Shown: in pieces, positions 3,752 to 27,008 of the stretch
Layout of the letters: every line of letters begins with the position of its first letter
How positions within the stretch are numbered: the stretch's first letter is position 1
Origin: a virus
Taxonomy: Duplodnaviria > Heunggongvirae > Uroviricota > Caudoviricetes
Length of the DNA: 27,545 nucleotides
Direction: 5' to 3' (one strand)
Virus record (IMG/VR): IMGVR_UViG_3300045996_000667
Location: 1 to 27,545 of that record
The notes under the pieces: generated by a model
Seen by the model: only the letters and a program-made list of their open reading frames with translations
What the model was told of the DNA's origin: nothing
Databases searched by the model: none
Made by a program: the position numbers and the translations under genes

Positions 3752-3771
3752 CACTGACACACGTAACACAC

Positions 3772-5523: not shown

Positions 5524-5654
5524 TCAATCTCCTAATATTCCTGCTCAGGTTCTACGACGTTCTACTCGTTGGACTGGCAGGCTCGTTCATTCTGGCCGTC
5601 ATCTGGTCGGCAGCCTCATGGCTGGCAGGACTGATAACTTATGTCCAAGACTGA
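5520..5654 (+). CDS. Small membrane protein (44 aa, not in ORF track)
   Basis: MINLLIFLLRFYDVLLVGLAGSFILAVIWSAASWLAGLITYVQD; ATGA overlap; stop lies inside the unit 16 motif. Confidence 0.7.
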   Translation: MINLLIFLLRFYDVLLVGLAGSFILAVIWSAASWLAGLITYVQD

Positions 5655-5880: not shown

Positions 5881-6157
5881 AGAGTTCTTCGCAGCCCTGA
5901 CAGGCACCATGTGCGGCATCTGTTATGCCCCGATAGTGCCTACCGAGAAGCCGTTGGGTGGCAAAGGCTACTACTTCGTATACGTCTGGGACCACGATTT
6001 CATCCCTCCGAACTGTAAGAAGGACGAGGATTCCTATTGTCAACTCCCGATGTGTCCAGGCTGCTATGGCTCGTGGGGAATGACCTCGGCAGGAAATATA
6101 AGATCTTGGGAACTGTGGGTAGTCTCAAGGAGGAAAGAACTTGGCCTCAAAGGCTGA
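5870..6157 (+). CDS. EFFxAL-tagged Zn-ribbon microprotein, unit 17
   Basis: MQSEEFFAAL, CGIC..CPGC. Confidence 0.8.
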   Translation: MQSEEFFAALTGTMCGICYAPIVPTEKPLGGKGYYFVYVWDHDFIPPNCKKDEDSYCQLPMCPGCYGSWGMTSAGNIRSWELWVVSRRKELGLKG

Positions 6158-6371
6158 AGAATTCTTCGAGGCTTTGCACACTGTGCAATCGACGTCCACT
6201 TGTCCATCCTGCAAGGCCACAGAAATGGCTAGGCCATACAGGCATATCACTGGACAATGCGCCTGGGAGTTATTCTGCCAGTGCGGCGAGAGTTTTCAGT
6301 CATCTCCTCGGGGAACATACTACAAAGACCTAAAAGCCATAGGCCACAGGCTACCAGACGATCATGACTGA
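6141..6371 (+). CDS. EFFxAL-tagged Zn-ribbon microprotein, unit 18
   Basis: AGGAGG RBS, TTG start; SKAEEFFEAL, CPSC..CQC. Confidence 0.8.
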   Translation: MASKAEEFFEALHTVQSTSTCPSCKATEMARPYRHITGQCAWELFCQCGESFQSSPRGTYYKDLKAIGHRLPDDHD

Positions 6372-6564
6372 CAAGTCTCGAGAGTTCTTCAAGGCTATCG
6401 GCGTTGTCGTGCTTGAACTGGAATGCCCATCGTGCGACTCTGAACAACTACATGACTGCGAGCCGCTTCCCGAAGGCGTCTGGGCAGTGATCTGTCAACA
6501 ATGCGGCAATGACTGGAAGAGCTACTACATAGCCCAGAAGAAGTACGATGAAGTATCGCTGTGA
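6364..6564 (+). CDS. EFFxAL-tagged Zn-ribbon microprotein, unit 19
   Basis: MTDKSREFFKAI, CPSC..CQQC. Confidence 0.8.
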   Translation: MTDKSREFFKAIGVVVLELECPSCDSEQLHDCEPLPEGVWAVICQQCGNDWKSYYIAQKKYDEVSL

Positions 6565-6706
6565 GAACGGACAGCTCGTGCCAGATCCTGACGGCGATTG
6601 GATAAGGACTGAGATTACTATCGCCACTGGCACAGCTATCAGGCCGCCAGGACTCGACGGACAGAGGATTGTCGTATGGACGCTAAAGAGTTCTGGGACT
6701 CACTGA
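6548..6706 (+). CDS. Untagged hypothetical microprotein (52 aa, not in ORF track)
   Basis: MKYRCENGQLVPDPDGDW..; fills the gap between units 19 and 20. Confidence 0.55.
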   Translation: MKYRCENGQLVPDPDGDWIRTEITIATGTAIRPPGLDGQRIVVWTLKSSGTH

Positions 6707-6903
6707 TACCGCCCACCATCGAGCTGGCGATGTGTGGATGTAGCAGTCCCAGCAAGCCTGCCGAGTGTGTGCCAGTCAGGCAAGAGATGGTATGGTTCTG
6801 GAGGGCGACGTGCAAGAGCTGCGGCTGGGAGTACGACTGCCAGCCCGGTGGCGGCTACGCACAAAGGCTGGCTAGAGATGGATACATCCTCCCTAACGAC
6901 TGA
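6676..6903 (+). CDS. EFFxAL-tagged Zn-ribbon microprotein, unit 20
   Basis: MDAKEFWDSL, CGC..CKSC. Confidence 0.75.
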   Translation: MDAKEFWDSLIPPTIELAMCGCSSPSKPAECVPVRQEMVWFWRATCKSCGWEYDCQPGGGYAQRLARDGYILPND

Positions 6904-7183
6904 AGAATTCTTCGAAGCTGTAGGTGTTGTCAGGTGCATAGCCTGCAGTCAGTTCACCAATAACGGCAAAAGCATGTGCTACGGCTGCTTTATTCCCTTT
7001 ATGCCCTACGAGCGGCTGTTAGAGCTGAAAGAGCGACGAGATGCCTCTTTCTATGCGGCCCCTGACCTCCGATACCGATACTTTCCAGTGCCGTCGACAG
7101 ACCCAACGCCGGCGCGCCCAGAAGCTGACGGACTCGAGAACGCGAGCACGGAACACCCCACCGCATCAGGCGGCCATGATTGA
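6878..7183 (+). CDS. EFFxAL-tagged Zn-ribbon microprotein, unit 21 (3' part antisense to the methyltransferase)
   Basis: LTTEEFFEAV, CIAC..CYGC; the tail is probably read-through into the inserted gene. Confidence 0.65.
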   Translation: MDTSSLTTEEFFEAVGVVRCIACSQFTNNGKSMCYGCFIPFMPYERLLELKERRDASFYAAPDLRYRYFPVPSTDPTPARPEADGLENASTEHPTASGGHD

Positions 7184-7727
7184 CAGCGTACCTAATGTTC
7201 ACCAGAGGGAAATGACGGCCCAGCAACTCTCGCAGCTGCTCGGTCCTGTAATGCCTCTTATGGTCATGGTAGGGACGTGTCAGGAAATCACCGTTTGGCG
7301 TCGTCATCAGGAACCTGCCGCCAGGCCTCAGCACGCGGGCGACATTCGCCACGAAGGCCTCGTCAGCCTCCACGTGCTCCAACACCTCCACCGCCACCAC
7401 CACGTCGAACGACCGCGCCGGCAGCCGCGTATCGGTCATGTCGTCAATGACGTAGTCGTAGACGTTCGTTCTGGAGGCGATGACCTGCCGACGAATGGCC
7501 TCCGTCGCCCCAAGGTCCAGCCGCTCCTGCAGCTCGGACTGGCGAGGAATGTCGGAGATGATCACCCGACTGCGCAGGCCGATGGTATACTGGCTGCGGC
7601 GACCGCCGACGTCCAGGATTCGCAGAGGGCCGTCTGCCTCCATCTCTCGCAGCATCCTCGAAACACGCCAGTACAGCGGGTGCTCGACAGGGCGAACCAC
7701 ACGGCGCAACGTCTCGTATCGCGTCAT
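6999..7727 (-). CDS. Class I SAM-dependent methyltransferase
   Basis: Motif I RILDVGG, FDVVVAVEVLEHV, RVLRPGGRFLMTTPNG; opposite strand and visibly more GC-rich than the array. Confidence 0.88.
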   Translation of the reverse strand: MTRYETLRRVVRPVEHPLYWRVSRMLREMEADGPLRILDVGGRRSQYTIGLRSRVIISDIPRQSELQERLDLGATEAIRRQVIASRTNVYDYVIDDMTDTRLPARSFDVVVAVEVLEHVEADEAFVANVARVLRPGGRFLMTTPNGDFLTRPYHDHKRHYRTEQLRELLGRHFPLVNIRYAVNHGRLMRWGVPCSRSRVRQLLGAPALGLSTALESIGIGGQGPHRKRHLVALSALTAARRA

Positions 7728-7784
7728 AGCTCTAGCATATGCCGATTTTGGCTACCTGACAACACTTACTAGTGTATTCCTTTC

Positions 7785-8021
7785 ATGTCAACATCTGAGG
7801 AGTTCTTTCACGCGCTCGCTCCGTCCGTTATAGGTGCGCACGACGCCTGTCAGGGCAGCTTCGAACATCGCGTGTTCTGGATTATCGACACTGTCAGCTA
7901 TCATGACGTCAGGGATGGACAAGCCATGCTGACCTGCAGCAATTGTGGCCAGCAGGTATGGGCCGCCAAGGCTTGGATCAACGATAAGCTGGACCGAACA
8001 ACGCGACATGACCAATTCTGA
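7785..8021 (+). CDS. EFFxAL-tagged Zn-binding microprotein, unit 22 (paralog of unit 16)
   Basis: MSTSEEFFHAL, GAHDAC..CSNC. Confidence 0.8.
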   Translation: MSTSEEFFHALAPSVIGAHDACQGSFEHRVFWIIDTVSYHDVRDGQAMLTCSNCGQQVWAAKAWINDKLDRTTRHDQF

Positions 8022-8211
8022 GGAGTTCTTCCAGGCCCTGACACCGACTACTATGGCTGTCTGCGATAACGACCGCTCGTGCGGCACCACCTTGCACGCC
8101 TGCACGCCACTTCCCGATTCCTTTTGGGAGGCTAGGTGCCTAAAATGCGGGGCTATGTGGGTCAGCAGCCTTGTCATTCATGAGGCGCTCCTAGAGGAGG
8201 GCAAGATTTGA
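8008..8211 (+). CDS. EFFxAL-tagged Zn-ribbon microprotein, unit 23
   Basis: MTNSEEFFQAL, CDNDRSC..CLKC. Confidence 0.8.
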   Translation: MTNSEEFFQALTPTTMAVCDNDRSCGTTLHACTPLPDSFWEARCLKCGAMWVSSLVIHEALLEEGKI

Positions 8212-8381
8212 CAAAATCTGAGGAATTCTTTCAGGCGCTCACAGGCCCGGTAGTCGAAGCATCATGCCACCACTGCCAGGTTAACAGAATGTTCGTTTGC
8301 ACACATGTTCTAGGACCGCAATGGGAAGCGACCTGCCAAGTGTGCGGTAACGTTATCGCCTTCAGTGTTACTGATGACTAA
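8208..8381 (+). CDS. EFFxAL-tagged Zn-ribbon microprotein, unit 24 (57 aa, not in ORF track)
   Basis: GAGGAGG RBS, TTG start; TKSEEFFQALTGPVV..CHHC..CQVC. Confidence 0.8.
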   Translation: MTKSEEFFQALTGPVVEASCHHCQVNRMFVCTHVLGPQWEATCQVCGNVIAFSVTDD

Positions 8382-8463
8382 ATCTGAGGAATTCTTTCAG
8401 GCGATCACAGGTCCAGTAGTCGAGGCTCACTGCACCGGCTGCCTGCCACGCAGAAGGGATTGA
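8374..8463 (+). pseudogene. Truncated unit 25 (29 aa; second CxxC lost)
   Basis: MTKSEEFFQAITGPVVEAHCTGCLPRRRD*; paralog of units 24 and 26. Confidence 0.6.
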
Positions 8464-8467
8464 GCGA

Positions 8468-8596
8468 ATGACTGAATGCGAGCCGGGATACCACGAATGG
8501 GAGTCCGGCGCCGGGTGGGGGACCATCATCGGCGTCAGTCGCTGTAAGCGTTGCGGTCGAGTGTCCCGCGCGTCTGATTTCTCCGGCGATGACTAA
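8468..8596 (+). CDS. Untagged Cys/His microprotein (42 aa)
   Basis: MTECEPGYHEW..CKRCG..; stop lies inside the unit 26 leader. Confidence 0.6.
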   Translation: MTECEPGYHEWESGAGWGTIIGVSRCKRCGRVSRASDFSGDD

Positions 8597-8789
8597 ATCT
8601 GAGGAATTCTTCCAGTCGCTAACAGGCCCAGTAGTCGTGGCGCACTGCATCGTCTGCGTCCAGATCGTCAAGTTCGTTTGCACACATGTGCAAGGCTCCA
8701 CATGGAGTGCTACCTGCCAGGACTGCGGCAACGTTTGGGAAAGCTTCTTCACAATCGAGCGTAAATTGATAAAGTCAGGTCAGATTTGA
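8589..8789 (+). CDS. EFFxAL-tagged Zn-ribbon microprotein, unit 26
   Basis: MTKSEEFFQSLTGPVV..CIVC..CQDC. Confidence 0.8.
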   Translation: MTKSEEFFQSLTGPVVVAHCIVCVQIVKFVCTHVQGSTWSATCQDCGNVWESFFTIERKLIKSGQI

Positions 8790-15687: not shown

Positions 15688-15950
15688 ACTATCTCGACAT
15701 TCAGATTCCAGGCGAGAAGATCAGCCACACCGACCTGACGGCAGACGCGCTGTTTTTCTCAGGGCGCACCACTGGCTGCTCATGTTGCTCGGACAGCTTC
15801 GACTTCAGCGAAACCTCCAAGGTGCAAGCCTTGGAACTGGCTGACCAGTGGATCAAGGAGCTGCGCGCACGGCTCAAGCAAGCCTGCGAGGTCAAGCGCA
15901 AGATTCGCGCGGTCAAGGTGGCAGACTGGGACAAGGCTAGGAGCACATGA
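15678..15950 (+). CDS. Hypothetical protein
   Basis: GTG start; GCSCCS. Confidence 0.65.
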   Translation: MSIDYLDIQIPGEKISHTDLTADALFFSGRTTGCSCCSDSFDFSETSKVQALELADQWIKELRARLKQACEVKRKIRAVKVADWDKARST

Positions 15951-16351
15951 ACTGGCTGACATTCCTCACCGCCCTGACAGAACAGGAGCGCGAAGAGCTC
16001 AAGGCCACCCTAGCCGACGCTGACAAGAATGCTGAGTTCTTTGATGCGCTGGCAGCCAATGATGCCCTGACCGCAGCTGAGCGCATCATTCGGCGGCGCG
16101 AGGGCAAGATACCGGCTATCAAGGCTGTCAGAGAGCGCACACGGCTAGGTCTGAAAGAAGCTAAGGACTTGGTCGAGCGCTGCGCACCTGACGACCTGTA
16201 CACCTTACCAGCCTGTCCTAAGTGTGGCTGCTGGAAAGAGCGCGTCAAGCCGGTAGCGCCATTGTCGCCAAATGAGTCACGGTATAACGGCAGGTTCCAT
16301 AAGTTTCATTGCCTGTCCTGTGACTGGATCTACGAGGCCAAGTACGTCTAG
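15947..16351 (+). CDS. Ribosomal bL12 (L7/L12) C-terminal-like domain + Zn ribbon, with internal EFFDAL motif
   Basis: KIPAIKAVRERTRLGLKEAKDLVE matches the bL12 CTD signature; CPKC..CLSC. Confidence 0.8.
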   Translation: MNWLTFLTALTEQEREELKATLADADKNAEFFDALAANDALTAAERIIRRREGKIPAIKAVRERTRLGLKEAKDLVERCAPDDLYTLPACPKCGCWKERVKPVAPLSPNESRYNGRFHKFHCLSCDWIYEAKYV

Positions 16352-16532
16352 GCCGCTTTGCACACGTGTTCAAGATTCGGCGTTCATTGCACAAAGTGCA
16401 AACAGTGCCAAGGCTCACAACCTAGATAGCCTCTAAAACGCTCAGGATGCGTTATGAGCGCATCTCAGGACTACCCGCACCCTAACCATTGCCCGACAGT
16501 TTAGAGGGCCTATAAGTCATGCTAGGAGGTTT

Positions 16533-16868
16533 ATGCGTATCAACGTGAACGAGAGCCGACAGATGAACCTGATGAAGGCGCTGAAGAACATGGGAGCCTG
16601 CGATGGATCTAAGGGCGCCATACCGTGGGTGAACACGAACCTGCAACCACAGCAGGGACTGCTCGACGCGTGGCTCCTGTGCCAGAACAAGGAATGGCTG
16701 CTCTGGCTGCTGGAACATTGGAAGCTGCTTGGCGAATGTACCTGCACGCTGAGCATTGACAGCATCAGCCGCTGCCCAATCGGTAAGGCCTACAACCTCG
16801 AATTCGAGGACGTGCAGGCCAATTACAGGGACGACATCGCCTGCATCGCCTACTACACCGGCCTTTGA
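16533..16868 (+). CDS. Hypothetical protein
   Basis: TAGGAGG RBS. Confidence 0.7.
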   Translation: MRINVNESRQMNLMKALKNMGACDGSKGAIPWVNTNLQPQQGLLDAWLLCQNKEWLLWLLEHWKLLGECTCTLSIDSISRCPIGKAYNLEFEDVQANYRDDIACIAYYTGL

Positions 16869-16871
16869 CCC

Positions 16872-17069
16872 ATGGACGACGACGAACGCAACGCGAAACT
16901 CGCAGCGTTCACCCTAGGCCAGTTGGAACTCGTATCAGCCGTGTCAGACGCGCTAGAGATAGCATGGCGGTCAGGCCTGACCAAGCAACAGACCGCCGAG
17001 GCTGTCGAACTGGCACTGCAAGCTCGAGACTTCCTGGCCGTGATACAATCTCGGAACCTGCTGGAGTGA
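16872..17069 (+). CDS. Hypothetical helical protein
   Basis: ORF track; tight spacing. Confidence 0.65.
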   Translation: MDDDERNAKLAAFTLGQLELVSAVSDALEIAWRSGLTKQQTAEAVELALQARDFLAVIQSRNLLE

Positions 17070-17072
17070 CCC

Positions 17073-17237
17073 ATGAAGCCAGCGCAGGCCACGTTGTTCG
17101 ATAAGGGCACTCTCCCCAAGGCCCAGCCCGATACCTACCAGCGGCTGGCAGAACTGGCCCGTGAACAGGGCTGCAACAATACGGCTCAGCTCCTCGAAGA
17201 ATCTGCCAGATTGGCAGAAATTTCTCGCAAGCCTTGA
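17073..17237 (+). CDS. 54-aa protein with N-terminal QATLF
   Basis: GGAG RBS; hand translation MKPAQATLFDKG.. Confidence 0.6.
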   Translation: MKPAQATLFDKGTLPKAQPDTYQRLAELAREQGCNNTAQLLEESARLAEISRKP

Positions 17238-17262
17238 CAGGCTGCCGAGGGCGCGCTACCCT
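17234..17262 (+). promoter_or_regulatory. sigma70-type promoter
   Basis: TTGACA-N17-TACCCT. Confidence 0.65.
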
Positions 17263-17297
17263 AGTGCGTTCCCGTGGCCCGACCAGATGAGGTGGTA

Positions 17298-17489
17298 ATG
17301 CGCGTGTATCTTGTGTATTGGTCCTACGACAGAGGGCGCTACGTGTCCTACGAAGGGCCAATCAGTGACCTCGGAACCCAGCAATCGGGCCAGCTCGTTG
17401 AAGCCGCGTTCGTTGACGAGCAAGAGGCCAACACCTACGCCAACAGGAGAACCGTTCAGAACAACTACATGGAAGGGGTGCGGCAATGA
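17298..17489 (+). CDS. Hypothetical protein
   Basis: GAGGTGG RBS. Confidence 0.65.
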   Translation: MRVYLVYWSYDRGRYVSYEGPISDLGTQQSGQLVEAAFVDEQEANTYANRRTVQNNYMEGVRQ

Positions 17490-17881
17490 GCACGAAAACG
17501 TTCGAACAGATGGTGGCCGCTCGCATCAACGACTATCGGATCGAACCGCTCACCAACGCCGATGCGAAGGCGGCGTGGTTGTCAGCCCTGCGCAGCGGGA
17601 ACTTCGGCCAAACAAAGACACAACTTCGCAACCTGTTCGACCTGAACCGTTTCTGCTGCCTCGGCGTGATGTGCGAAGTCTTCAAGGATGCCGTCAATGG
17701 CGAGTGGAAAAAAGACCTTTTCGGCATCAAGGACGAACAGCGCTACGTTGGCGGGTATCCTCCGCTAGCGGTTACCAAATACGTCGGCATGACCGACGAC
17801 ACGCAGCGCTTCATCAGTGGCCTGAACGACGACGGGGCCACCTTCGCTGAAATCGCGGACTACATCGAGGCCAATCTGTGA
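17486..17881 (+). CDS. Conserved phage hypothetical protein (W..ALRSG..Q....CCLGV.CE type)
   Basis: Pattern recalled from phage proteins of unknown function; ATGA overlap. Confidence 0.78.
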   Translation: MSTKTFEQMVAARINDYRIEPLTNADAKAAWLSALRSGNFGQTKTQLRNLFDLNRFCCLGVMCEVFKDAVNGEWKKDLFGIKDEQRYVGGYPPLAVTKYVGMTDDTQRFISGLNDDGATFAEIADYIEANL

Positions 17882-17979
17882 TGCAGTATACACACACCGA
17901 ACCACCGCTGAGAGGTTTCATCACGTTCCTGCTCCTGCTGTTCTTGGTGGCAGTCGGCCTGATCGGATTCGCAGGATGA
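17878..17979 (+). CDS. Small membrane peptide
   Basis: GTGA/ATGA overlaps; hydrophobic. Confidence 0.55.
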   Translation: MMQYTHTEPPLRGFITFLLLLFLVAVGLIGFAG

Positions 17980-18311
17980 CCACCTTCCTACTGCGAGGCA
18001 AGGGACAGAAACCAACAGCACCGCCCAGATACCAGCATGACTGTTCAGCCTGCCGATTCATTGGGCAGGTTGACAAGTACGACATCTGGTACTGCCCGCC
18101 GGTCAGCGCCTACAAGACTGGTCCAAGCCTGATTGCCCGCTACGGCAATGACGGGCTTGAATACTCCAGCGGCGAAGACTTCGAATACCGCCACATCATG
18201 GCTATCAGGTCGGAAATCGGTGGCCTGACTAACGACGAGGTTATCCTGCTGGCCACGTTCCGCATGATGCCAAGTCTGCTGCTCAACATCTGGAAACCGA
18301 GGGAGAACTAA
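17976..18311 (+). CDS. Hypothetical protein
   Basis: H.C..C pattern; ATGA overlap. Confidence 0.7.
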   Translation: MTTFLLRGKGQKPTAPPRYQHDCSACRFIGQVDKYDIWYCPPVSAYKTGPSLIARYGNDGLEYSSGEDFEYRHIMAIRSEIGGLTNDEVILLATFRMMPSLLLNIWKPREN

Positions 18312-19303
18312 TGCGTCGTTCGTTCGCAGCAGCCGCGTTGGCTGCGCTGCTTTCGGCTGGCTGTGGCGACTCGCCCGTCGCCATAGTCGGCCCTACTACA
18401 CCCACGGCATCGACTCAGGAGCTGTCACCGAAGGCCTGCGCGTTCAACATGACCGTGCTCGAGGCGTCGGTTGACCGTGCCTATCTCAAGGTCAGGAACA
18501 ACGACATCTGCGAACGCAGAGCGGGAGTCGCCGTCTACAAGGCGATTGACCCGTTCCTGCCACTGACGCAGGACAATCAGGAGCTGTTCTCGGACGTCAA
18601 CGTAGTAGTTCAACCAGGCGCGACAGTCGAGATCACAGCTGAACTGCCGCCGCCGTGCGGTGAATATCAGTTTGACCCGTATCACACGATTGAATCCGTC
18701 GGCGCGAAGGGTTCCAAGCCCAACTTCGGGCAGGGCGAGAATCTGTTCGACATCAGCCAGTTCTCGTCTCACTACGGCGGAACGCGCTGCGTAGTGGTGC
18801 CACCGCCACCACCACCGCCGCCACCACCACCGCCGCCACCACCACCGCCACCGCCACCACCACCACCGCCGCCACCGCCGCCTCCACCTCCACCTCCACC
18901 GCCACCGCCACCGCCACCGCCGCCCGTGTGCCCAGTGGTAACCAAGGCGAACGTGGACAAGTACATCACTAGGCGCGACGTGAACTCGGTCAAGGACGGC
19001 GCGTATGCCGTATTCACGATCGAGCTACCGGCTGGCTGCGACATTCTGCTGTCGCTGGTCAGCTACAAGAAATACAGCTGCGAGAAGTTCCCGCAGAAGT
19101 TCATCGACGGCAAGTCTGGGCGTTACAAGTCAGGAACATACACGTGGGAGCTGCAAGTCACAAAGACCGACAGGCTCTATCAGGTGGACCTACTGGTAGG
19201 CGGGTTCAAGCCTGAGGACCTGACACAACAGAACCACGATAGCGACTACGGTCCACGAACCATCGACTGGATATCAGACTGGACGGGTTGCCCGTCAAAG
19301 TGA
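18311..19303 (+). CDS. Putative lipoprotein with a 42-proline linker
   Basis: Signal MRRSFAAAALAALLSAGC with lipobox Cys; Pro codons at 18800-18925. Confidence 0.8.
   Translation: MRRSFAAAALAALLSAGCGDSPVAIVGPTTPTASTQELSPKACAFNMTVLEASVDRAYLKVRNNDICERRAGVAVYKAIDPFLPLTQDNQELFSDVNVVVQPGATVEITAELPPPCGEYQFDPYHTIESVGAKGSKPNFGQGENLFDISQFSSHYGGTRCVVVPPPPPPPPPPPPPPPPPPPPPPPPPPPPPPPPPPPPPPPPPPVCPVVTKANVDKYITRRDVNSVKDGAYAVFTIELPAGCDILLSLVSYKKYSCEKFPQKFIDGKSGRYKSGTYTWELQVTKTDRLYQVDLLVGGFKPEDLTQQNHDSDYGPRTIDWISDWTGCPSK
18800..18925 (+). repeat. CCN trinucleotide tract (poly-Pro x42)
   Basis: Mixed CCA/CCG/CCT/CCC codons. Confidence 0.95.
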
Positions 19304-19309
19304 GGCTTC

Positions 19310-19510
19310 ATGCCCGAAGTGCTCGGACCATGCGACATCGTGCTAGAGGATAAGTGCTTCGCCTGCAATGGCAAAGGCGCTAAGAGCGAGAGCGAATTCC
19401 CCTGTTGGCGTTGCGAAGGCAGGGGCATCATCATCACCGAATTCGGAGCAAAAGTGCTCGACTTTGTCGCCCGCAATCTCAAACTGAACATCACTGGAAA
19501 GGTGGAATAG
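19310..19510 (+). CDS. DnaJ-type CxxCxGxG zinc-finger small protein
   Basis: CFACNGKG and CWRCEGRG. Confidence 0.75.
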   Translation: MPEVLGPCDIVLEDKCFACNGKGAKSESEFPCWRCEGRGIIITEFGAKVLDFVARNLKLNITGKVE

Positions 19511-19513
19511 GTC

Positions 19514-19693
19514 ATGGGATACGCTGCCAGGAACAACAAGACTGCCAAGCTCGCCAAGGCCGGTCAGCTCGCACCGCTCACGCCTGCCAAGCGCCGCCGC
19601 GTCAACAAGCCCGTCAACGTCGTAGGCCCGCGCCGTGTCATGACAGTGCTGGCCATGATGGCAGCAGTTGTCGTCGGCAGGTTCGGACGCTAG
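19514..19693 (+). CDS. Basic small protein with hydrophobic C-terminus (59 aa)
   Basis: Hand translation; fills the gap. Confidence 0.6.
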   Translation: MGYAARNNKTAKLAKAGQLAPLTPAKRRRVNKPVNVVGPRRVMTVLAMMAAVVVGRFGR

Positions 19694-19695
19694 CC

Positions 19696-20007
19696 ATGCT
19701 GCTAGGCGTAGCAACAGTGGGCAGAGAGTCCAAGTTCAAAGAGGGCGACAGGGTTCGCAACTGTGACCGCGTCATAGAGAAGGCGCGCAGGTTTTGGGAG
19801 GAACGCAAATACACCAGCTATGCCACCAGCGCATGGAACTGGTATCAACGTGACAGGGACCGGCGAGGCACTGTCACCTGGGCAGGATGGAACGGCTACT
19901 GTATGGCCGTCGAAATCCGCTGGGACGACGGCATGACCAGCAAGTGCATGGACAGCGAAGTAACGCTCGTGCCCCTCAACCAAGACTTCATGGAGGCTCT
20001 GTGCTGA
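19696..20007 (+). CDS. Hypothetical protein (possible SH3-like barrel)
   Basis: FKEGDRV..GTV..IRWDDG pattern. Confidence 0.65.
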   Translation: MLLGVATVGRESKFKEGDRVRNCDRVIEKARRFWEERKYTSYATSAWNWYQRDRDRRGTVTWAGWNGYCMAVEIRWDDGMTSKCMDSEVTLVPLNQDFMEALC

Positions 20008-20414
20008 CACTCGGCAAGCTGATCGAACTCGCAGTCGGAAAAGACGAATCATCACACGTCGACACGTCCATCCCGCAAGGTGTCTTCGACAACATGTCAA
20101 CCGGACAGCGCGAGGACGTCGCTGGCTGGTGGTATGAGCGATATGCGGGCGGTACTCGCTCCATCTTCGGACGACTGCTGACCAAGACTGAGTGCTGGGA
20201 CAGGATTGTCCAGCATCTCAACAACGGCACCCTGCTAGCCACTGGCATGGGTGGCGGGCCTCTCTACGACATCTCATTCGTTGTCAAGGACTGGCCGTGT
20301 CTGCGCAAGCATGTCAACGAGGGCCACATCGCGCTCTACACGCCGACGCAGTTCGAAGAGGAGAAGGCGGAATACGAGGATCGGCAGCGGCGCATGGAAC
20401 GGCGCAATGGCTGA
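20001..20414 (+). CDS. Hypothetical protein
   Basis: GTG start after GGAGG. Confidence 0.65.
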   Translation: MLTLGKLIELAVGKDESSHVDTSIPQGVFDNMSTGQREDVAGWWYERYAGGTRSIFGRLLTKTECWDRIVQHLNNGTLLATGMGGGPLYDISFVVKDWPCLRKHVNEGHIALYTPTQFEEEKAEYEDRQRRMERRNG

Positions 20415-20589
20415 CAAACAGGTCGAATACCGGATTCAGTTCCTGAACATGGCGTATTGGAAGGATATCGCCAAGCCCTACAAGCGCCAGTCACCAGCTG
20501 TCAGGTTGGCTAACAGACTGGCAAGAAATGGCGACGTTACTCGCGTCGTCAAGGTCGAAACAACCGTTGTCGTTGTCCACTTCAAGTAA
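20407..20589 (+). CDS. Hypothetical protein
   Basis: 8-nt overlap start. Confidence 0.65.
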   Translation: MADKQVEYRIQFLNMAYWKDIAKPYKRQSPAVRLANRLARNGDVTRVVKVETTVVVVHFK

Positions 20590-20596
20590 CGCTGAC

Positions 20597-20968
20597 ATGG
20601 CTGACAAACTGTTCATACCGACCATCGGCACGCAACTTGTGCTCGCAGAGCCGTGGACCTTCAAGGTCTACAGCGAATATCGGAACGCCGACATCCTGTC
20701 AATGGTCAACCATGTCCAGCAACGCTACGGCGTTCACCACGTTAACAACCTGACACTGCCTGTCGGAACTGTTCTGACGGTCGACCGCATCTACATCAAG
20801 AAAGGCATGCCCGACTTCGATAGCATCACGTTCAGGGCCAGCGACTACGCCACTAACAGCGTTGACGAATTCTTCGCAGCGCTGGCAGACTTCAAGATCA
20901 AGAAGTCTATCAGGTTCTGGGTGAAGCTGGCAGACGCCAACACCATCGTCTACAAATCACAGGAGTAA
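20597..20968 (+). CDS. Phage hypothetical protein with internal DEFFAAL motif
   Basis: LFIPTIG..W.F..Y.E.RN..RFWVKL.D.N; motif at 20864-20884. Confidence 0.75.
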   Translation: MADKLFIPTIGTQLVLAEPWTFKVYSEYRNADILSMVNHVQQRYGVHHVNNLTLPVGTVLTVDRIYIKKGMPDFDSITFRASDYATNSVDEFFAALADFKIKKSIRFWVKLADANTIVYKSQE

Positions 20969-20969
20969 C

Positions 20970-21293
20970 ATGCGTATCGTATTCTTTCCGCCCCGTCCCA
21001 ATCAGCGCTCACTGGCCGACTTCCAAATCGAATTCACCGAACCCGGCAGCTTGCTCGAAGGCCTGTGCATCGCCGGCTTCTCCATCTGGCAGCGTCGGAA
21101 CGCACAAGAGGGCGACCTGCCCTACTCCATCACCATGCCGTCGCGCAAGTACGAAGACAAGGACGGACAGACCCAGTATTGGGACTTCGTGCGCCTGATC
21201 GACCTCGAGGACAGCCGCTACAAGACGCGGTTCCTGCGCGCCGTCATCGACCAGTTCGAGAAGTGGGACAGCAAGCGCCGTAACGGCCGCTGA
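20970..21293 (+). CDS. SpoVG-like nucleic-acid-binding protein
   Basis: I.GF.I..ITMPSRKY..G...YWD..R.....AV pattern. Confidence 0.55.
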   Translation: MRIVFFPPRPNQRSLADFQIEFTEPGSLLEGLCIAGFSIWQRRNAQEGDLPYSITMPSRKYEDKDGQTQYWDFVRLIDLEDSRYKTRFLRAVIDQFEKWDSKRRNGR

Positions 21294-21295
21294 CC

Positions 21296-21661
21296 ATGAG
21301 CTACTTCGAAACCAACCTCGCGCCGCCGAACAGCTACTACGAGGTTGTCGAGCCTATCAACGTGCTAGAGCTCATAGGCCACAAGCCTAGCAATGCCTGG
21401 TATGGCGCGTCACGCATCTGGGATCCTGTCTACCGGCCGCTGGAACTGAAAGTCGGCGGGATCCTGATGAACCTGCATGGAGGCCTGTTCTACGCTGACA
21501 AGGCCGGCGACGTCTGCCGCCCTGTGGTCATGCTGGAGAACCCCAAGAGCGCCTTCGAGAAGCGCTACTCGCCGGACTATCACGAGTGGCCACTGGATAG
21601 CCTGCGGCCGACTGACAAGGTTCCCTACGTCCACAAGGATCTGGACAAGCTTCCCGAGTAG
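21296..21661 (+). CDS. Hypothetical protein
   Basis: ORF track. Confidence 0.75.
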   Translation: MSYFETNLAPPNSYYEVVEPINVLELIGHKPSNAWYGASRIWDPVYRPLELKVGGILMNLHGGLFYADKAGDVCRPVVMLENPKSAFEKRYSPDYHEWPLDSLRPTDKVPYVHKDLDKLPE

Positions 21662-21672
21662 GAGGAGAGAAC

Positions 21673-22212
21673 ATGGCTACATGCGCATGGAAAGACGAAG
21701 CCTGCACGTTCGAATCGGATGGCAACAGCAAGTACTGCGGCCCGAAGGGCAACAACCATCGCAAGCTGGCCCGCTTGAGGTTCAAGGACTTCGTCGCTGA
21801 ACAGGCGGCGGTTCGGGCCGAGAAGAACGACCAGTTCAAGGCCATCTTCGAGGAAGCTCGACAAGCCGGACTGGCAGCGGGACAGGCGATCACACCTCGA
21901 CCGATGATCGTCACTCGTGATAGCATGTCGATCGTGACCAGCTCTGGCCAGCGGCCCATCCTCGACCGGGACTACGTGGTGCCGGACGGCCCGTGCGGCT
22001 TCGCGTGGGTTGTCATTCGGCCAGGAAACTCGCCAGCTGCCAACTACGCCAAGAAGAATCTCAACGCGCACAAGCACTACTACGGCGGCATGGAGATCTG
22101 GGTCAGCGACTTCGGCCAGTCGATGGCACGCAAGGAAGCCTACGCCGAAGCCTACGCCGAAGTATTGCGGAAGCACGGCATTCAGGCGAGCGCCGGCTCG
22201 CGCATGGACTAG
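21673..22212 (+). CDS. Conserved phage hypothetical protein (CGFAWV..QS..RKEAYA..SRxD type)
   Basis: GGAGGAG RBS; pattern recalled from diverse phages. Confidence 0.8.
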   Translation: MATCAWKDEACTFESDGNSKYCGPKGNNHRKLARLRFKDFVAEQAAVRAEKNDQFKAIFEEARQAGLAAGQAITPRPMIVTRDSMSIVTSSGQRPILDRDYVVPDGPCGFAWVVIRPGNSPAANYAKKNLNAHKHYYGGMEIWVSDFGQSMARKEAYAEAYAEVLRKHGIQASAGSRMD

Positions 22213-22227
22213 GAGCACGTAATACAC

Positions 22228-22563
22228 ATGGAAAACGTGAGTGGAGTCTGGGCGATCACCACCATCAGTAGCGCCGATTTCCCAAAGGGCCATAGAACGC
22301 CGGGTGTGGTGCGAACGCTGGAGGAAGCCACCGAGTTGATCGAGGGCAACTACGGCGACATCTACGAATTCTCCTACGACTACGCCGTCGCGGAGTTCGT
22401 GCCGTTCGGCCTCTACTCACTGCAGCGCCGTCAGGTCTGGTTCCGATGGCAGCATGACAAATACGTCAACATCGGCAGCTCTGTTCCTGATGGCATGACT
22501 CAGGCCATGGCCAAGGTTGGCTTCGGGGCCACGCGCATGGCCAACTGGAGCGGGATAGGGTGA
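22228..22563 (+). CDS. Hypothetical protein
   Basis: AGGAG RBS. Confidence 0.7.
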   Translation: MENVSGVWAITTISSADFPKGHRTPGVVRTLEEATELIEGNYGDIYEFSYDYAVAEFVPFGLYSLQRRQVWFRWQHDKYVNIGSSVPDGMTQAMAKVGFGATRMANWSGIG

Positions 22564-22892
22564 TGCGATTCTACCTGTCAGACGAACGGCCACAACTGTT
22601 AGTCCCTTGCAGAATGGCCGTCTTCGGTATCGTAGCCGTAGCCACTGGCCGACCGACAAAGAAGCGGCCCTACACGCCCATCGCTTTCAAGCCGGCAGGA
22701 TGGCAAGCGTGGAACAGCGACCCTGTCATGGAGCACAGAACGGCTAGGCTGAAAGGCGCTGGCTCCTTCTACTGGCAGGGTGCTGTCAAGGCGCTGGCAG
22801 AGGCTCGGAGAATCATTGACAGTGCTCCCAGCGTTCACCAAATCAAGATCGAAACCATCAGCGGACGAGAGATAGGAAGGCTATACCGGTGA
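22560..22892 (+). CDS. Hypothetical protein
   Basis: GTGA overlap. Confidence 0.7.
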   Translation: MMRFYLSDERPQLLVPCRMAVFGIVAVATGRPTKKRPYTPIAFKPAGWQAWNSDPVMEHRTARLKGAGSFYWQGAVKALAEARRIIDSAPSVHQIKIETISGREIGRLYR

Positions 22893-23239
22893 TAGCAACG
22901 CTAGAGGTTGAGAGGACTCGCCCTCGGGACATCCCATGGGCGGAACGGCAGATTGAGGCCCAGCTCAAGCAGCCTGTCATCTACGGCAGAAACGGGCTGC
23001 GGCGCTGGGTAGCTCGTCTGGGCGGCGCGGCCTGCGTAGTTGACGCCTTCGGCAACAAATTCCGGCCACTTGGTAAAGGCTGGGATGACCTGCAAGCTGC
23101 TGCTGACCTCTGGCGACGACTCAAAGAGACGCACAAAGATAGTGCAATTCTCAGCCAAGGGATCTACTATAGATGGAATGCCAGCGACCGGCGCTTCATC
23201 GAGGTTGATCACGTCATCATCAAGGACGCACGGCGGTAA
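22889..23239 (+). CDS. Hypothetical protein
   Basis: GTGA overlap. Confidence 0.65.
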   Translation: MIATLEVERTRPRDIPWAERQIEAQLKQPVIYGRNGLRRWVARLGGAACVVDAFGNKFRPLGKGWDDLQAAADLWRRLKETHKDSAILSQGIYYRWNASDRRFIEVDHVIIKDARR

Positions 23240-23577
23240 TGGGACTCCTCCAGCAAGAGCGGCGGCGAGCGCGCGGCCTGTGCGTTCGCTCACGCTGCAA
23301 AAACAAACCGACGATCAACAAACGCACCGGGTATCCGTTCAGGATGTGCCGGGACTGTCGGCTCGTCAACTCGAAGCAATACACGGCTCGCTACCACAAA
23401 CGCAAGAACGCCAAACGTTGCGTCAGGTGCAAGGGTGAACACGACACCAAGTTTGCCCTGTGCCAATCATGCAGAGAGATGAGGAGGATTAGTGGAACTG
23501 GCAGAACGGACCATCTCCAGAGCGCCATCAGGGGTCTATCAGAAGTTGGCCACGTGGCTAGCGCAATGGCTCTGTAA
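23239..23577 (+). CDS. Basic protein with tandem Cys4 repeats
   Basis: Two R..C..C...C..C units; TAATG overlap. Confidence 0.65.
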   Translation: MGLLQQERRRARGLCVRSRCKNKPTINKRTGYPFRMCRDCRLVNSKQYTARYHKRKNAKRCVRCKGEHDTKFALCQSCREMRRISGTGRTDHLQSAIRGLSEVGHVASAMAL

Positions 23578-23746
23578 GCACAATTACCTTGTGTATCATG
23601 AGGGTAAAAGGATGGCCCTGCGCTGTCAGGAGTGCCAGCATGAGACACCTGGTATCGAGGTAACAGGCGAACCCAAGAGGCTGCTCGACGGTCAACCATC
23701 TCGTCACGTTCTCAGAAACGACAGACTCGCCAAGAGGACCAACTGA
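23492..23746 (+). CDS. Hypothetical Cys/His protein
   Basis: GAGGAGG RBS, GTG start; LCKH..CQEC. Confidence 0.65.
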   Translation: MELAERTISRAPSGVYQKLATWLAQWLCKHNYLVYHEGKRMALRCQECQHETPGIEVTGEPKRLLDGQPSRHVLRNDRLAKRTN

Positions 23747-24114
23747 TGTTCGACAGAAAGAAGTGCCAAGTCATCTCTGCGGAAGTCGCCGTAGCTCTAG
23801 CGCCTATCGCCACACGTCATGGCCTGACCATCGACGTCAGGGGTGGCAGGTTCGACAGCACGACTTTCACTCCAAAGATCGTGTTCAACGTAGCAGACGG
23901 CGGAAGGTTGCGCTTCGAGCAGTGGGCCAAGGCGCTGGGGCTGCAGCCTACCGACTTCGGGCGCCAGTTCTCGTTCGGCGGCAAGACCTACACAATCAGC
24001 GACGTCAACCCGAATGCCTTGCGCTCAGTCGGAGCCACGCGCGACGGCAAGACCTACTTCTGGAAGGCCAGCGACATCAAGAAGCTCTTAGGACCGGAGG
24101 TGGTATGCCCCTGA
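23746..24114 (+). CDS. Hypothetical protein
   Basis: GAGGA RBS; TGATG overlap. Confidence 0.75.
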   Translation: MFDRKKCQVISAEVAVALAPIATRHGLTIDVRGGRFDSTTFTPKIVFNVADGGRLRFEQWAKALGLQPTDFGRQFSFGGKTYTISDVNPNALRSVGATRDGKTYFWKASDIKKLLGPEVVCP

Positions 24115-24287
24115 CCTACTGCGCCATGTGTCACCACGAGTACCTGAAGACTCGGCCGCGTTGCCCCGCCTGCGGCCACGTCCCAGCAAACAAGGAGAAC
24201 CGCACAATCAACGAGCAGGACGACGACTTCACAAGACAGCTCAGTCTGGTAGCGAGTTCGGTCAATCGAAGGAGCCAGCAGCGATGA
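24105..24287 (+). CDS. Zn-ribbon microprotein (untagged)
   Basis: GGAGG RBS; CAMC..CPAC. Confidence 0.7.
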   Translation: MPLTYCAMCHHEYLKTRPRCPACGHVPANKENRTINEQDDDFTRQLSLVASSVNRRSQQR

Positions 24288-25147
24288 GTGCTCGTGCAAA
24301 TTGGAAAGGCAGCCTGTCCATCGGTCTTCTCAATATCCCCGTAGCCGTGTTCACGGCGACGGACGACGTCAACGACTTGCAGCTTAGGCTGCTCCACTCG
24401 AAGTGCGCAAACCCGATCAATCAGCCGAGGAAGTGCGTGCCCTGCGGCGTGGACGTCACGACGGACGACATCGTCAAGGGCTACGAGATCGCCAAGGGTC
24501 AGTTCATCCAGCTCTCCAACGAGGAACTGGCCAACATCAAACCAACGTCCACGCACACCATCAACGTCGACAGCTTCACGCCCGTGAAGGACATCGACCT
24601 GATCTACTTCGACCGGCCCTATTACCTCGGGCCGAACGGACCTGTCGCCTACAAGCCCTACAAGGCTCTCCGCGACGGCATGAAGCGAACCGGCAAGGTA
24701 GCGCTCGGCGTCATCACCATGTATGGCAGGGACCATCTCATGGCCATCCGTCCCGAAGGCAGCGGCCTTGTGATGCAGCGCATCCGTGAACGCCGCGAGG
24801 TGCGTGGCATCGAGATCCTGCCAGGATACGAGGAACTGGCCTCGGCTGCCGATGGGCCGCACGTCGCCATGGTGTCCCAGATCATCGACAGCATGGAGCA
24901 GGAGTTCGATCCGGCTCTCCATGAGGACAGCTACCGGCGAGAGCTGCTCAACCTGATCGAGTCCAAGGTCGCTGGCATCGAATACACCGCGCCAGTCGTC
25001 AAGGAAGCGCCGCCGACCGAGGACATCATGGAGGCTCTGACCAAGACGCTGGAGCAAGCCAAGTCCGGCAAGACCAAAAAGCGCATGGCGAAGGCCGAAG
25101 AGCCGGCGGCCGCGAAGAAGTCCAAGCGCAAGGCCGTAGCGGCCTAA
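24284..25147 (+). CDS. ku: Ku DNA end-binding protein (NHEJ)
   Basis: WKGSLSIGLLNIPV, IVKGYE, IDLIYFDRPYYL, D.YR..L..LI..K..G, basic tail. Confidence 0.95.
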   Translation: MSARANWKGSLSIGLLNIPVAVFTATDDVNDLQLRLLHSKCANPINQPRKCVPCGVDVTTDDIVKGYEIAKGQFIQLSNEELANIKPTSTHTINVDSFTPVKDIDLIYFDRPYYLGPNGPVAYKPYKALRDGMKRTGKVALGVITMYGRDHLMAIRPEGSGLVMQRIRERREVRGIEILPGYEELASAADGPHVAMVSQIIDSMEQEFDPALHEDSYRRELLNLIESKVAGIEYTAPVVKEAPPTEDIMEALTKTLEQAKSGKTKKRMAKAEEPAAAKKSKRKAVAA

Positions 25148-25151
25148 CAGT

Positions 25152-25214
25152 CTTGGGGTCGGGGCTAGTCATAACATTGATACTCGCCCTATCAGTCCTA
25201 GCCTCGGCCCCAAG
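25152..25214. terminator. Long hairpin after ku
   Basis: 17-bp stem with two G-U pairs plus an inner TGATA/TATCA stem. Confidence 0.55.
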
Positions 25215-25244
25215 TTCACCAACAACCACACCAAGAGGACAGTA

Positions 25245-25652
25245 ATGAGGAAATTTGTACTTCTCGCAGCCTTGCTAGTTTTCGGCGCCACTCTGTCGGC
25301 GCAGTCGCTCGTGATCACCGTGAACGACGCCCTGAGCTTCGACTACAGGGACGACTACATGGCCGACTACGCGGTCCAGCGTTTCGAGGTGACTTGGGAC
25401 TGCAATCCGGCGACAACTCAGTGTACCTTCCAGACGCTGAACACTACGCAGTTCAGGGACGCGCTGACACAGGACGGACACTCGTCATACCGCTACGTGC
25501 CGCCCTTCTCCAACGGCAACCATACCGTAGCTCTCAGGGCGTGCAACGCGTGGGGCTGCGGAGGTAGCTCGACCCCTTTTCCGTTCGCCTACGAAAACGT
25601 TAGCCCGCCGCCGGGAGTGCCTACCAACTTCCGGAAGGTTCCCCGTCAGTAA
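25245..25652 (+). CDS. Secreted beta-rich (FN3/Ig-like) protein
   Basis: Signal peptide ending LSA-Q; ALRACN..GC..S; C-terminal PGVPTNFR. Confidence 0.7.
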   Translation: MRKFVLLAALLVFGATLSAQSLVITVNDALSFDYRDDYMADYAVQRFEVTWDCNPATTQCTFQTLNTTQFRDALTQDGHSSYRYVPPFSNGNHTVALRACNAWGCGGSSTPFPFAYENVSPPPGVPTNFRKVPRQ

Positions 25653-25664
25653 TCGGTAACCAAG

Positions 25665-25700
25665 GGCCTGCAACGTATGCTTGTGTGTATGTTGCAGGCC
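25665..25700. terminator. 16-bp hairpin with 4-nt loop
   Basis: GGCCTGCAACGTATGC-TTGT-GTGTATGTTGCAGGCC; three G-U pairs; followed by TATTT. Confidence 0.65.
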
Positions 25701-25721
25701 TATTTACACTAGGAGACTCTA

Positions 25722-26033
25722 ATGGAACCTGTTAAGCTCGGACGCATCATCAAGGGTGACAACGCTGGCAGAGACGCTGTCCATATTGCCATAGCTCCTG
25801 TCAGGGCCGCCCAGATCCTCCAACCAGGCGAACGAATCGGCTTCGTAGATGAGGACCAGCTCCTCGTCGGCCGCGTGACTGACTACGTTGGCATCGTTGA
25901 CCCGTTCATGGGCAAGCCTGTCATGCCCGGACAGGACTTCTACATGTGCCTGTTCCCAGGAACCACCACGTCGCTCACGCACGTGTGGAAACACCCGTCG
26001 TTCAAGGAAGAGGGCGAGCGTGTACTCCAGTAG
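25722..26033 (+). CDS. Conserved phage hypothetical protein, N-terminal half (RDAVHIA..GIVDPF..SL.HVW.HP)
   Basis: AGGAG RBS; recalled family pattern. Confidence 0.75.
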   Translation: MEPVKLGRIIKGDNAGRDAVHIAIAPVRAAQILQPGERIGFVDEDQLLVGRVTDYVGIVDPFMGKPVMPGQDFYMCLFPGTTTSLTHVWKHPSFKEEGERVLQ

Positions 26034-26283
26034 GTCTGAAGAATTCTTCGACGCGCTGAACGACGGATCCAAGAAGTGGCTGCAGGGTTTCGCCGCCGAC
26101 TTCGGAATTCCATTCGAAAAGCTCATACGTGACTGCACAAACTGGGTCGTGAACGACGAGTACTTCTGGTACGAAAGCATGGACAGCATCTCGACCCGCG
26201 AGTTTTGGAATCGCTTTGAGCAATACAGCGGCCTCAAGGTTACTGCCGACAAACGCATCTCGTTCTTCTCCTGCTCCTGCTAG
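26020..26283 (+). CDS. EFFxAL-tagged protein ending FSCSC
   Basis: GTG start; SRSEEFFDAL..WL..FA..EFW..FSCSC. Confidence 0.72.
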   Translation: MYSSRSEEFFDALNDGSKKWLQGFAADFGIPFEKLIRDCTNWVVNDEYFWYESMDSISTREFWNRFEQYSGLKVTADKRISFFSCSC

Positions 26284-26519
26284 TGCATAGGCGCAAGCTT
26301 CGGCAGATTCGTCGCAAGCTGCGAGAAGATCCTCAGCCCCTCACAGTCACTGAGTCTTTCCTAGAAGAGGCCACAGGGGACAGGGCCTATAACAGGCGCT
26401 GTCCGTACTGCCTGAGCCTCACACAGGTGGTCAATGGCCAATGTCAACGTCTCGAGTGCATCGTCAAACGGTCAGCCGACCGCATCAAAGACTGGCGAGA
26501 ACGACAGCGTAAACGATGA
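26283..26519 (+). CDS. Basic Zn-binding hypothetical protein
   Basis: CPYC..C..LEC. Confidence 0.6.
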   Translation: MHRRKLRQIRRKLREDPQPLTVTESFLEEATGDRAYNRRCPYCLSLTQVVNGQCQRLECIVKRSADRIKDWRERQRKR

Positions 26520-26637
26520 GCTGCTGACCTCATCCGCTGACATCGCTGTTAATCTGGCCACCCGAGAGCGCGGCCTACTTGACTCGGCCACGATTGCTGA
26601 GTTAGAACAGTGGCTGGCAGAAACGAACAAGCCATGA
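26434..26637 (+). CDS. Possible hypothetical protein (start uncertain)
   Basis: The 3' part fills the gap and ends in an ATGA overlap; no convincing start. Confidence 0.4.
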   Translation: MANVNVSSASSNGQPTASKTGENDSVNDELLTSSADIAVNLATRERGLLDSATIAELEQWLAETNKP

Positions 26638-27008
26638 CAGAAGCTGAGAAAAACGGCGAGTTCTGGGATGCGCTGACAGGGCCGAAAGTCTACCTAGAAA
26701 GGTCGCGCATTCGCTACCAAGACGAGCGCGACGACAGGATCTATCGCAGCAATGTCGTCTACGACGCGATGCGAGAACTAATGAACGCAGCTCGTAGCAA
26801 GGGATACATCGCAAGCGAGTACATCAACAAATCTATTCAGGCCACCAGTAAAGAGTTCACCGCCGAAACGGTTGAACTAGCCAGATCTTACGCCTACTTC
26901 GCTGGCTGCGATGCTCGTCGCGCCTTCACAGTGGCACAGCTCGTGCTCGACATGTACGAGGAACACCAGAAACTCGGCGGTTTTCCTGTCGACTTCACAA
27001 AGCTATGA
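26634..27008 (+). CDS. EFWDAL-tagged hypothetical protein (no Zn ribbon)
   Basis: MTEAEKNGEFWDALTGP; ATGA overlap. Confidence 0.75.
   Translation: MTEAEKNGEFWDALTGPKVYLERSRIRYQDERDDRIYRSNVVYDAMRELMNAARSKGYIASEYINKSIQATSKEFTAETVELARSYAYFAGCDARRAFTVAQLVLDMYEEHQKLGGFPVDFTKL

Follow-up and report, generated by a model that had tools for sequence, protein, structure and literature searches.

Why does one short peptide recur on proteins that otherwise do not resemble each other? The question is raised by a stretch of 27,545 nucleotides (the window), the first 27.5 kb of the 125.7-kb record of an uncultured soil phage (IMG/VR record IMGVR_UViG_3300045996_000667; estimated by CheckV to be 83% complete). 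Near its start, about 26 tiny zinc-ribbon genes form an array. Each of these genes starts with a peptide of about nine residues, which we call the tag, with the consensus [DT]-K-[SN]-x-E-F-[FW]-x-[AS]-L. An earlier inspection of the letters without database searches (the sequence-only reading) had noticed the tag on four further proteins far from the array, here carriers 1 to 4, and had taken it for a portable address label grafted onto diverse proteins. The answer that we lean towards is a docking motif, separable from the zinc-ribbon fold and specific to one lineage of phages.

The array and the four carriers are arranged as follows (all coordinates are window positions unless marked as genome positions).

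186-8789, + strand: the array (about 26 tiny zinc-ribbon genes, all starting with the tag)
15947-16351, + strand: carrier 1, 134 aa, with AGGAG 5 nt before its ATG
16022-16051, + strand: tag of carrier 1, DKNAEFFDAL, internal (core EFFDAL at 16034-16051, residues 30-35)
20597-20968, + strand: carrier 2, 123 aa, a member of phrog_22676 (E=2.7e-27)
20861-20884, + strand: tag of carrier 2, VDEFFAAL, internal (DEFFAAL at 20864-20884, residues 89-95)
26020-26283, + strand: carrier 3, 87 aa, the C-terminal half of a split gene (phrog_11912 positions 146-226)
26029-26058, + strand: tag of carrier 3 (SEEFFDAL at 26035-26058, residues 6-13); the protein begins M/V-YSSRSEEFFDAL
26634-27008, + strand: carrier 4, 124 aa, helical, with an ATGA overlap with the upstream stop
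26646-26684, + strand: tag of carrier 4, EKNGEFWDALTGP (EFWDALTGP at 26658-26684, residues 9-17)

All four sites (EFFDAL, DEFFAAL, SEEFFDAL and EFWDALTGP) translate as the sequence-only reading gave them, and each lies in a plausible gene on the + strand. The internal position in carriers 1 and 2 and the N-terminal position in carriers 3 and 4 are confirmed as well, for carrier 3 subject to the gene split. A smaller claim, that carrier 4 has ALTGP in common with units 24 and 26 of the array, does not hold for the unit at 8604, which reads SLTGP.

How common is the tag? It occurs on about 45 open reading frames (ORFs) of the phage, mostly 4-15 residues from the N-terminus. In the array the leader has the consensus [DT]-K-S-E-E-F-F-x-A-L, and 21 of the roughly 26 units fit the strict pattern. 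In an alignment of the units no other part of the family is as well conserved as the tag, whose E, F and L never vary; the cysteine ligands are conserved in at least 90%. On a helical wheel the A, F, L and F of the tag fall on one hydrophobic face, and the other positions are mostly acidic or polar. The tag is predicted to form a two-turn amphipathic helix. A helix breaker after the tag is unconvincing, with a proline or glycine within four residues in 54% of copies and in 42% by expectation.

The core pattern E-F-[FW]-x-[AS]-L is found 39 times on the + strand of the 125.7-kb genome and once on the minus strand. In six-frame segments 39 observed matches compare with a mean of 0.13 in 300 shuffles, and a reversed-genome control gives none. 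Outside the array, where the sequence-only reading would have expected a mere accident to fall back to the chance level, the frequency stays well above it: on the + strand between 9 and 124 kb we observe 15 matches and expect 0.063 from shuffles. A DNA pattern for E-F-F-x-A-L matches 30 times in the phage and never in 1.25 Mb of five other phage genomes. To score individual sites we used a 13-residue position-specific scoring matrix (PSSM) trained on the array only, for which the null per genome is 0.12 matches with at least 14 bits and 0.74 with at least 10 bits. Carriers 1 to 4 score 20.7, 11.7, 25.2 and 19.2 bits, and a nine-residue matrix gives carrier 2 19.5 bits. The tag set as a whole is not due to chance; carrier 2 is the only individually borderline site.

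Further candidates lie in the genome beyond the window.

Genome 33633-33968: cysteine-free carrier with LEFWDALANED near its start
Genome 72842-73138, minus strand: cysteine-rich zinc protein, the last gene of a minus-strand operon, with the C-terminal tag DKNDEFFGALE-stop (tag at 72865)
Genome 102654-103196: Dam-family adenine methyltransferase (PF05869, E=6e-24) with N-terminal TPLDFFESL

The last of these is not counted as a carrier, because TPLDFFESL (genome 102693) is intrinsic to the N-terminus of the Dam methyltransferase family. Two further look-alikes are uncertain, GEFFGEL at genome 30128 and REFWDSLTK-stop at genome 42260.

Could the tag nevertheless lack any common function outside the array? 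It would then be the first helix of the ribbon family, and the outside sites would be chance amphipathic helices or remnants of the family. Carrier 1 does have two CxxC pairs after its tag, the tag of carrier 3 aligns with an existing helix of phage phiM12, and helices of this kind do exist, as in the Dam look-alike. However, at least six carriers outside the family stand against 0.06-0.13 chance matches expected, and the lack of matches in the other phage DNA also speaks against chance. The common prefixes (R-S-E and D/E-K-N) exceed a hydrophobic pattern. Thus D/E-K-N is common to carriers 1 and 4, the C-terminal minus-strand copy and two ribbon genes at 114.5 kb, and the prefix DKN-x-EFF recurs at N-terminal, internal and C-terminal sites. 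Moreover, orthologues keep the tag while their flanks change, and the ribbon is predicted to fold without the tag. We regard an absence of common function as unlikely.

Is it the peptide that is conserved, or the DNA that encodes it? A perfect 12-bp palindrome with an EcoRI site, GAAGAATTCTTC, can encode E-E-F-F, and TTC is the first phenylalanine codon in 39 of 40 copies. Both observations would fit a conserved DNA or RNA element, be it this palindrome, a recombination block or a signal for translational coupling. However, the full palindrome is present in only 4 of the 40 copies. GAA/GAG, TTC/TTT, GCN and CTN/TTG vary over the copies, roughly according to the codon usage of the genome; the information content tracks the codon pattern, and the 45 nt upstream of the tag show no conservation. 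The TTC bias is accounted for by an avoidance of T runs, and the internal and C-terminal copies run contrary to a DNA or RNA element. Synonymous variation and unconserved flanks rule out the palindrome and its EcoRI site. For the same two reasons selection acts on the peptide, not on the DNA, and any element of this kind is highly improbable.

Is the tag then simply a part of the zinc-ribbon fold? In an all-against-all BLAST comparison the carriers align at the tag only. A hidden Markov model (HMM) of the ribbon alone, built from 21 array units with the tag removed, matches array units at E=1e-7 to 1e-17. It has no match to carriers 2 to 4, and its match to carrier 1, with the two CxxC pairs, is not significant (E=3.1). 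The sequence-only reading had denied an array-type zinc ribbon to three of the four carriers; the model finds none significantly in any of the four. In terms of membership in the array family, the carriers have the leader peptide ([DT]-K-S-x-E-F-[FW]-x-[AS]-L) and not the ribbon body, defined as CxxC, 25-40 residues and CxxC with homology to array units.

Structure prediction adds to this picture. With an alignment of 21 paralogues, AlphaFold2 models a tagged unit with a mean predicted local distance difference test (pLDDT) of 84. Residue blocks 1-10 and 11-20 reach 62 and 70, the ribbon reaches about 95, and the predicted helix spans residues 9-17. When the alignment is cut just after the tag, the mean pLDDT is 93 and the predicted template modelling (pTM) score 0.76, with the same strands. 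Structural neighbours of an array unit in the Atlas align mostly from residue 16-20 onward. In a Foldseek search against the PDB there is no match at E<=0.001, and the top rows are the ribosomal zinc-ribbon protein eL42. VIA-align places the tag-less ribbon near Tudor/SH3/KOW-like small barrels, at Z<=6.6 and below the noise level of the tool. A predicted complex of two copies of an array unit scores 0.01, which is uninformative either way. Because the carriers align at the tag only and have no ribbon homology, and because the ribbon is predicted to fold better untagged, the tag appears separable from the ribbon. Its independence of the zinc-ribbon fold is supported by sequence comparison and models alike. 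Here we agree with the sequence-only reading, which had placed the motif outside the fold and on unrelated proteins.

The carriers differ in what surrounds the tag. Carrier 1 consists of an N-terminal helix, the tag, an L7/L12-like segment (residues 53-81) and a C-terminal CxxC...CxxC, in this order. Residues 53-81 (16103-16189; IPAIKAVRERTRLGLKEAKDLVE) match the C-terminal domain of ribosomal protein L7/L12 (PF00542, E=1.2e-8) with 35.5 bits, above the gathering cut-off of 25.9. The match covers profile positions 11-38 of 67, a part that presumably corresponds to the factor-binding helices. By this match carrier 1 has a partial, L12-like segment only, and the segment may mimic the ribosomal stalk. 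Metagenomic relatives of carrier 1 have only the L12-like block in common. A metagenomic orthologue with 61% identity retains the tag as KSAEFFEAL, and a distant L12-like homologue has KNLVLADAV at the tag position. P0037 and P0038 are homologues of carrier 1 without the tag; the orthologues of carriers 1 and 4 that keep it are P0036 and P0002.

In carrier 2 the tag lies inside a segment of variable length, flanked by two conserved blocks. The start at 20597 is used by gene callers, and homologues begin there; an alternative start at 20528 gives 146 aa. Five homologues are without the motif: those of Xanthomonas phage XaC1, Pseudomonas phage nickie, Rhizobium phage RHph_I4, Agrobacterium phage Atu_ph07 and an uncultured phage. 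An independent soil run holds an identical piece of carrier 2, and a search for carrier 2 in metagenome contigs gave no match. Carrier 4 belongs to no Pfam or PHROG family and has no phage match. The sole relative found (83% identity) retains EFWEALTGP. In the Atlas model of carrier 4 the best structural matches span mostly residues 30-122.

How does a protein come by the tag? Carrier 3 gives the clearest view, and it has to be read together with the ORF upstream.

25722-26033, + strand: N-terminal half of the split phrog_11912 gene, 103 aa (phrog_11912 positions 17-114 of 226, E=4e-25)

In the Sinorhizobium phages phiM12 and phiN3, phrog_11912 is a single protein of 233-235 aa that is not split. 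Here the two domains are not in one polypeptide. The gene is split at the interdomain linker into overlapping ORFs of 103 and 87 aa. They do not share a frame; the first has a stop of its own and the second a start of its own. The N-terminal half is 51% identical to phiM12 residues 42-126, and a stand-alone family for this half exists (phrog_17232). It ends at a TAG within the first codons of carrier 3, in the other frame. Carrier 3 starts with a GTG, with a GAGG Shine-Dalgarno sequence 7 nt upstream. The N-terminal status of the tag at 26035 hinges on this split. Two other assemblies have identical DNA here, and their gene calls show this split too. Contigs from independent soil runs show no differences where listed, with no listed piece spanning the junction at 26020-26033; among the runs listed for the region none is of RNA. 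A programmed frameshift that joins the two halves is unlikely, as positions 26020-26033 contain no slippery site and carrier 3 has a good Shine-Dalgarno sequence and a GTG. A search for a 'longer' match to carrier 3 found nothing.

At the aligned tag site phiM12 has SKPEEVIDVIAQ (EEVIDVI) and carrier 3 has SRSEEFFDALND. The two E and the D are identical, and the four hydrophobic positions each swap to another hydrophobic residue. Judged from this alignment, the tag of carrier 3 replaces a pre-existing helix, which points to remodelling in place by point changes, not to insertion. The spread of the tag would then probably have followed the pattern of carrier 3, with point mutations reshaping existing exposed helices or loops, and not that of cut-and-paste. 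This changes how the idea of a grafted, portable label is to be understood. Portability stands, while grafting is doubtful: the flanking DNA shows no similarity, and the helix of carrier 3 looks remodelled. If so, carrier 3 would be a rare view of motif acquisition, with the tag written over a helix that was already there, where the newly separated gene half begins.

Is the tag restricted to this lineage? The sequence-only reading had proposed to align each carrier with its homologues in other phages and to look for a lineage-specific insertion. Array-less homologues of carriers 1 to 3 are without the tag, so they do not carry the same residues, and orthologues of carriers 1 and 4 keep it. In terms of matrix scores, the aligned segments of carrier 1 to 3 homologues from array-less phages reach -8 to -28 bits, and those of close orthologues +20 to +29 bits. 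No tagged ribbon family was found in the five comparison phages. Lineage specificity is thus supported by these alignments; the insertion is not, as the tag seems to have taken over an existing helix in carriers 3 and 1.

A profile search of 1.84 billion representatives gave 32 matches, of which about seven are small proteins not from the phage itself. All of these have the tag at the start, followed by a ribbon. The seven other metagenomic clusters keep the tag, and their ribbons are at most about 50% identical (they fall into different 50%-identity clusters). Because non-self matches are few and all of them are tagged, the tag appears to be conserved across a narrow clade of related phages. 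In IMG/VR, a Ku query (the Ku gene is listed below) found one distant locus without tags, and a DNA pattern for S-E-E-F-F-Q-A-L gave one match, likely by chance. Relatives identified through the major capsid protein reach no more than 41% identity and have no tags. A protein from another metagenome, P0022 (165 aa), is built of four tandem units (RNQFWQSLEEGTGKRCSEC, about 24 residues each), in which a tag-like helix is combined with one CxxC knuckle.

What could such a peptide do? The tag has the anatomy of a docking motif, because it is short, sits at termini or in a variable segment, and is more conserved than the domains attached to it. On balance we favour the reading, drawn from these sequence features, that the tag is a short linear docking motif with one common binding partner. 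This partner, from the phage or from the host, would bind the hydrophobic face of the tag. Binding would gather many different small proteins, or would let them be handled alike.

Docking could take several forms, and the genes around the tags bear on the choice between them. The + strand of the genome carries small early-type genes and genes of DNA metabolism, among them a primase-helicase and ligases for DNA and for RNA. The minus strand has a structural block at genome 77-112 kb with the genes for capsid, portal and terminase. Two of the genes of DNA metabolism, and the frames that interrupt the array, are the following.

24128-25147, + strand: Ku-like end-binding protein (PF02735, E=7.5e-39)
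Genome 35199-36458: ATP-dependent DNA ligase, about 10 kb from the Ku gene
2021-3208, + strand, 395 aa, and 1922-3037, minus strand, 371 aa: opposing frames of the first interruption of the array
7041-7772, + strand, 243 aa, and 6999-7727, minus strand, 242 aa: opposing frames of the second interruption

Ku and the ATP-dependent DNA ligase possibly form a phage end-joining module. Ku matches in cultured phages are nearly all from mycobacteriophages. The array itself is broken by two longer stretches, 1922-3208 and 6999-7772, with long open frames on both strands. The two + strand ORFs that interrupt it have no significant Pfam or PHROG match; the antisense frames were not searched. At the other end of the record, the last 1.4 kb (genome 124334-125713) repeat the first 1.6 kb of the window (1-1567) at only 89-98% identity. 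This terminal duplication is imperfect, not an exact terminal repeat, and tagged ribbon genes lie inside it.

The closest precedent for a docking peptide in a phage comes from T4. The internal proteins of T4 are a highly diverse set in which only a 10-residue N-terminal capsid targeting sequence (CTS) is conserved (PMC3012670, PMC9026906). The CTS of IPI, IPII, IPIII and Alt resembles our tag in that a peptide of about 10 residues is the sole conserved feature of diverse small proteins, and in that it is transferable to unrelated proteins. By analogy, the tag could be a CTS-like signal for capsid targeting or packaging, which would be a special case of docking: a library of diverse small proteins would be brought into the prohead and ejected together with the DNA. 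The hypervariable bodies behind a common, short and mostly N-terminal tag fit this proposal. However, the tag is also found internally (carriers 1 and 2) and at a C-terminus (genome 72865, minus strand), and is not a strictly N-terminal propeptide of about 10 residues. Column counts show no conserved L/I-x-E cleavage site after it. All tagged genes but one lie in the + strand block with Ku, the ligases and the primase-helicase, and none lies in the structural block on the minus strand. Prohead proteases of the Pfam families S78 and S77 were not found in the 83%-complete record, where the S77 control also matched nothing. The tag differs from the T4 CTS in its position, in the missing protease site and in its setting among early and replication genes, and no sequence relation between the two is established. 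Packaging of the T4 type is rather unlikely.

Alternatively, the tag may be a signal for degradation or processing by a protease or an AAA+ machine, so that many early proteins would share a lifetime or a step of maturation. The tag lies exposed, at a terminus or within a loop, and is rich in aromatic and acidic residues; in addition, the following pair of genes is flanked by tagged genes.

Genome 30770-33250: AAA_5/MoxR-like ATPase adjoining a DUF2201_N putative metallopeptidase and VWA-like protein, with tagged genes on both sides

However, the proximity of these genes is the sole support for a degradation signal, and no pattern of a cleavage site is visible at the tag. The AAA_5 match is below the Pfam cut-off (20.5 against 22 bits). 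PHROGs label the DUF2201_N/VWA-like protein as an HNH endonuclease, without support from Pfam. We consider a degradation or processing signal distinctly unlikely.

A different precedent is suggested by the letters of the tag. The eukaryotic FFAT motif (E-F-F-D-A-x-E) binds the MSP domain of VAP proteins, and EFFDAL occurs in VIP1 of Toxoplasma (PMC12669045). The two have an EFFDA core (in carriers 1 and 3 only) and an acidic context in common, and both are portable docking peptides, for the tag if our reading is right. They differ in that position 4 of the array consensus is Q, A or E instead of D, in that the tag ends in L instead of E, and in that the host here is a bacterium. The seven-residue FFAT core is absent from the family, in which no E stands at position 7 and position 4 varies between Q, A, E, D and G. 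The MSP domain (PF00635) was not found in the phage record. The likeness to FFAT is that of a sequence look-alike only.

Several points weigh against a docking motif with a common partner. No partner or reader of the tag was identified in this analysis. Carrier 2, taken alone, is borderline, with 11.7 bits from the 13-residue matrix; for the + strand outside the array about 0.06 matches are expected by chance. In carrier 3, and perhaps in carrier 1, the tag sits where homologues have a structural helix and may be an ordinary element of the fold that resembles the tag without a common function. The Dam look-alike TPLDFFESL shows that near-matches and loose motif scans mislead. Finally, the AlphaFold2 argument consists of confidence values alone, without coordinates or contact maps.

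A bolder version of the docking motif, which we put forward tentatively and place somewhat short of even, is a peptide address system that spans the genome. The helix sits on about one fifth of the genes, unrelated ones included. A single dedicated reader would recruit, package or process this hypervariable set, and clients would be enrolled by mutating an exposed helix.

How much of this has been seen before? In Bacillus phage G, zinc-ribbon proteins have undergone a lineage-specific expansion to about 35 members (Iyer et al. 2021, PMC7824862). Like the phage studied here, phage G has dozens of diverged small zinc-ribbon paralogues whose role is unknown. The report on phage G describes a ribbon family and no tag, whereas here the leader is also found on proteins without a ribbon. 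Our literature search found no description of this tag. Expansions of zinc ribbons in phages and shared targeting peptides are known; what is added here is evidence that the tag can be separated from the ribbon and is carried by unrelated proteins.

If one partner indeed reads the tag, bacterial viruses would have a counterpart both to the short linear motifs of eukaryotes and to the CTS of T4. The tag would be usable for engineering, as it is only nine residues long. The identity of the reader would suggest a function for about 45 orphan genes at once. For the phage itself, the tag would be a compact handle by which dozens of small and fast-evolving proteins can be treated as one class.

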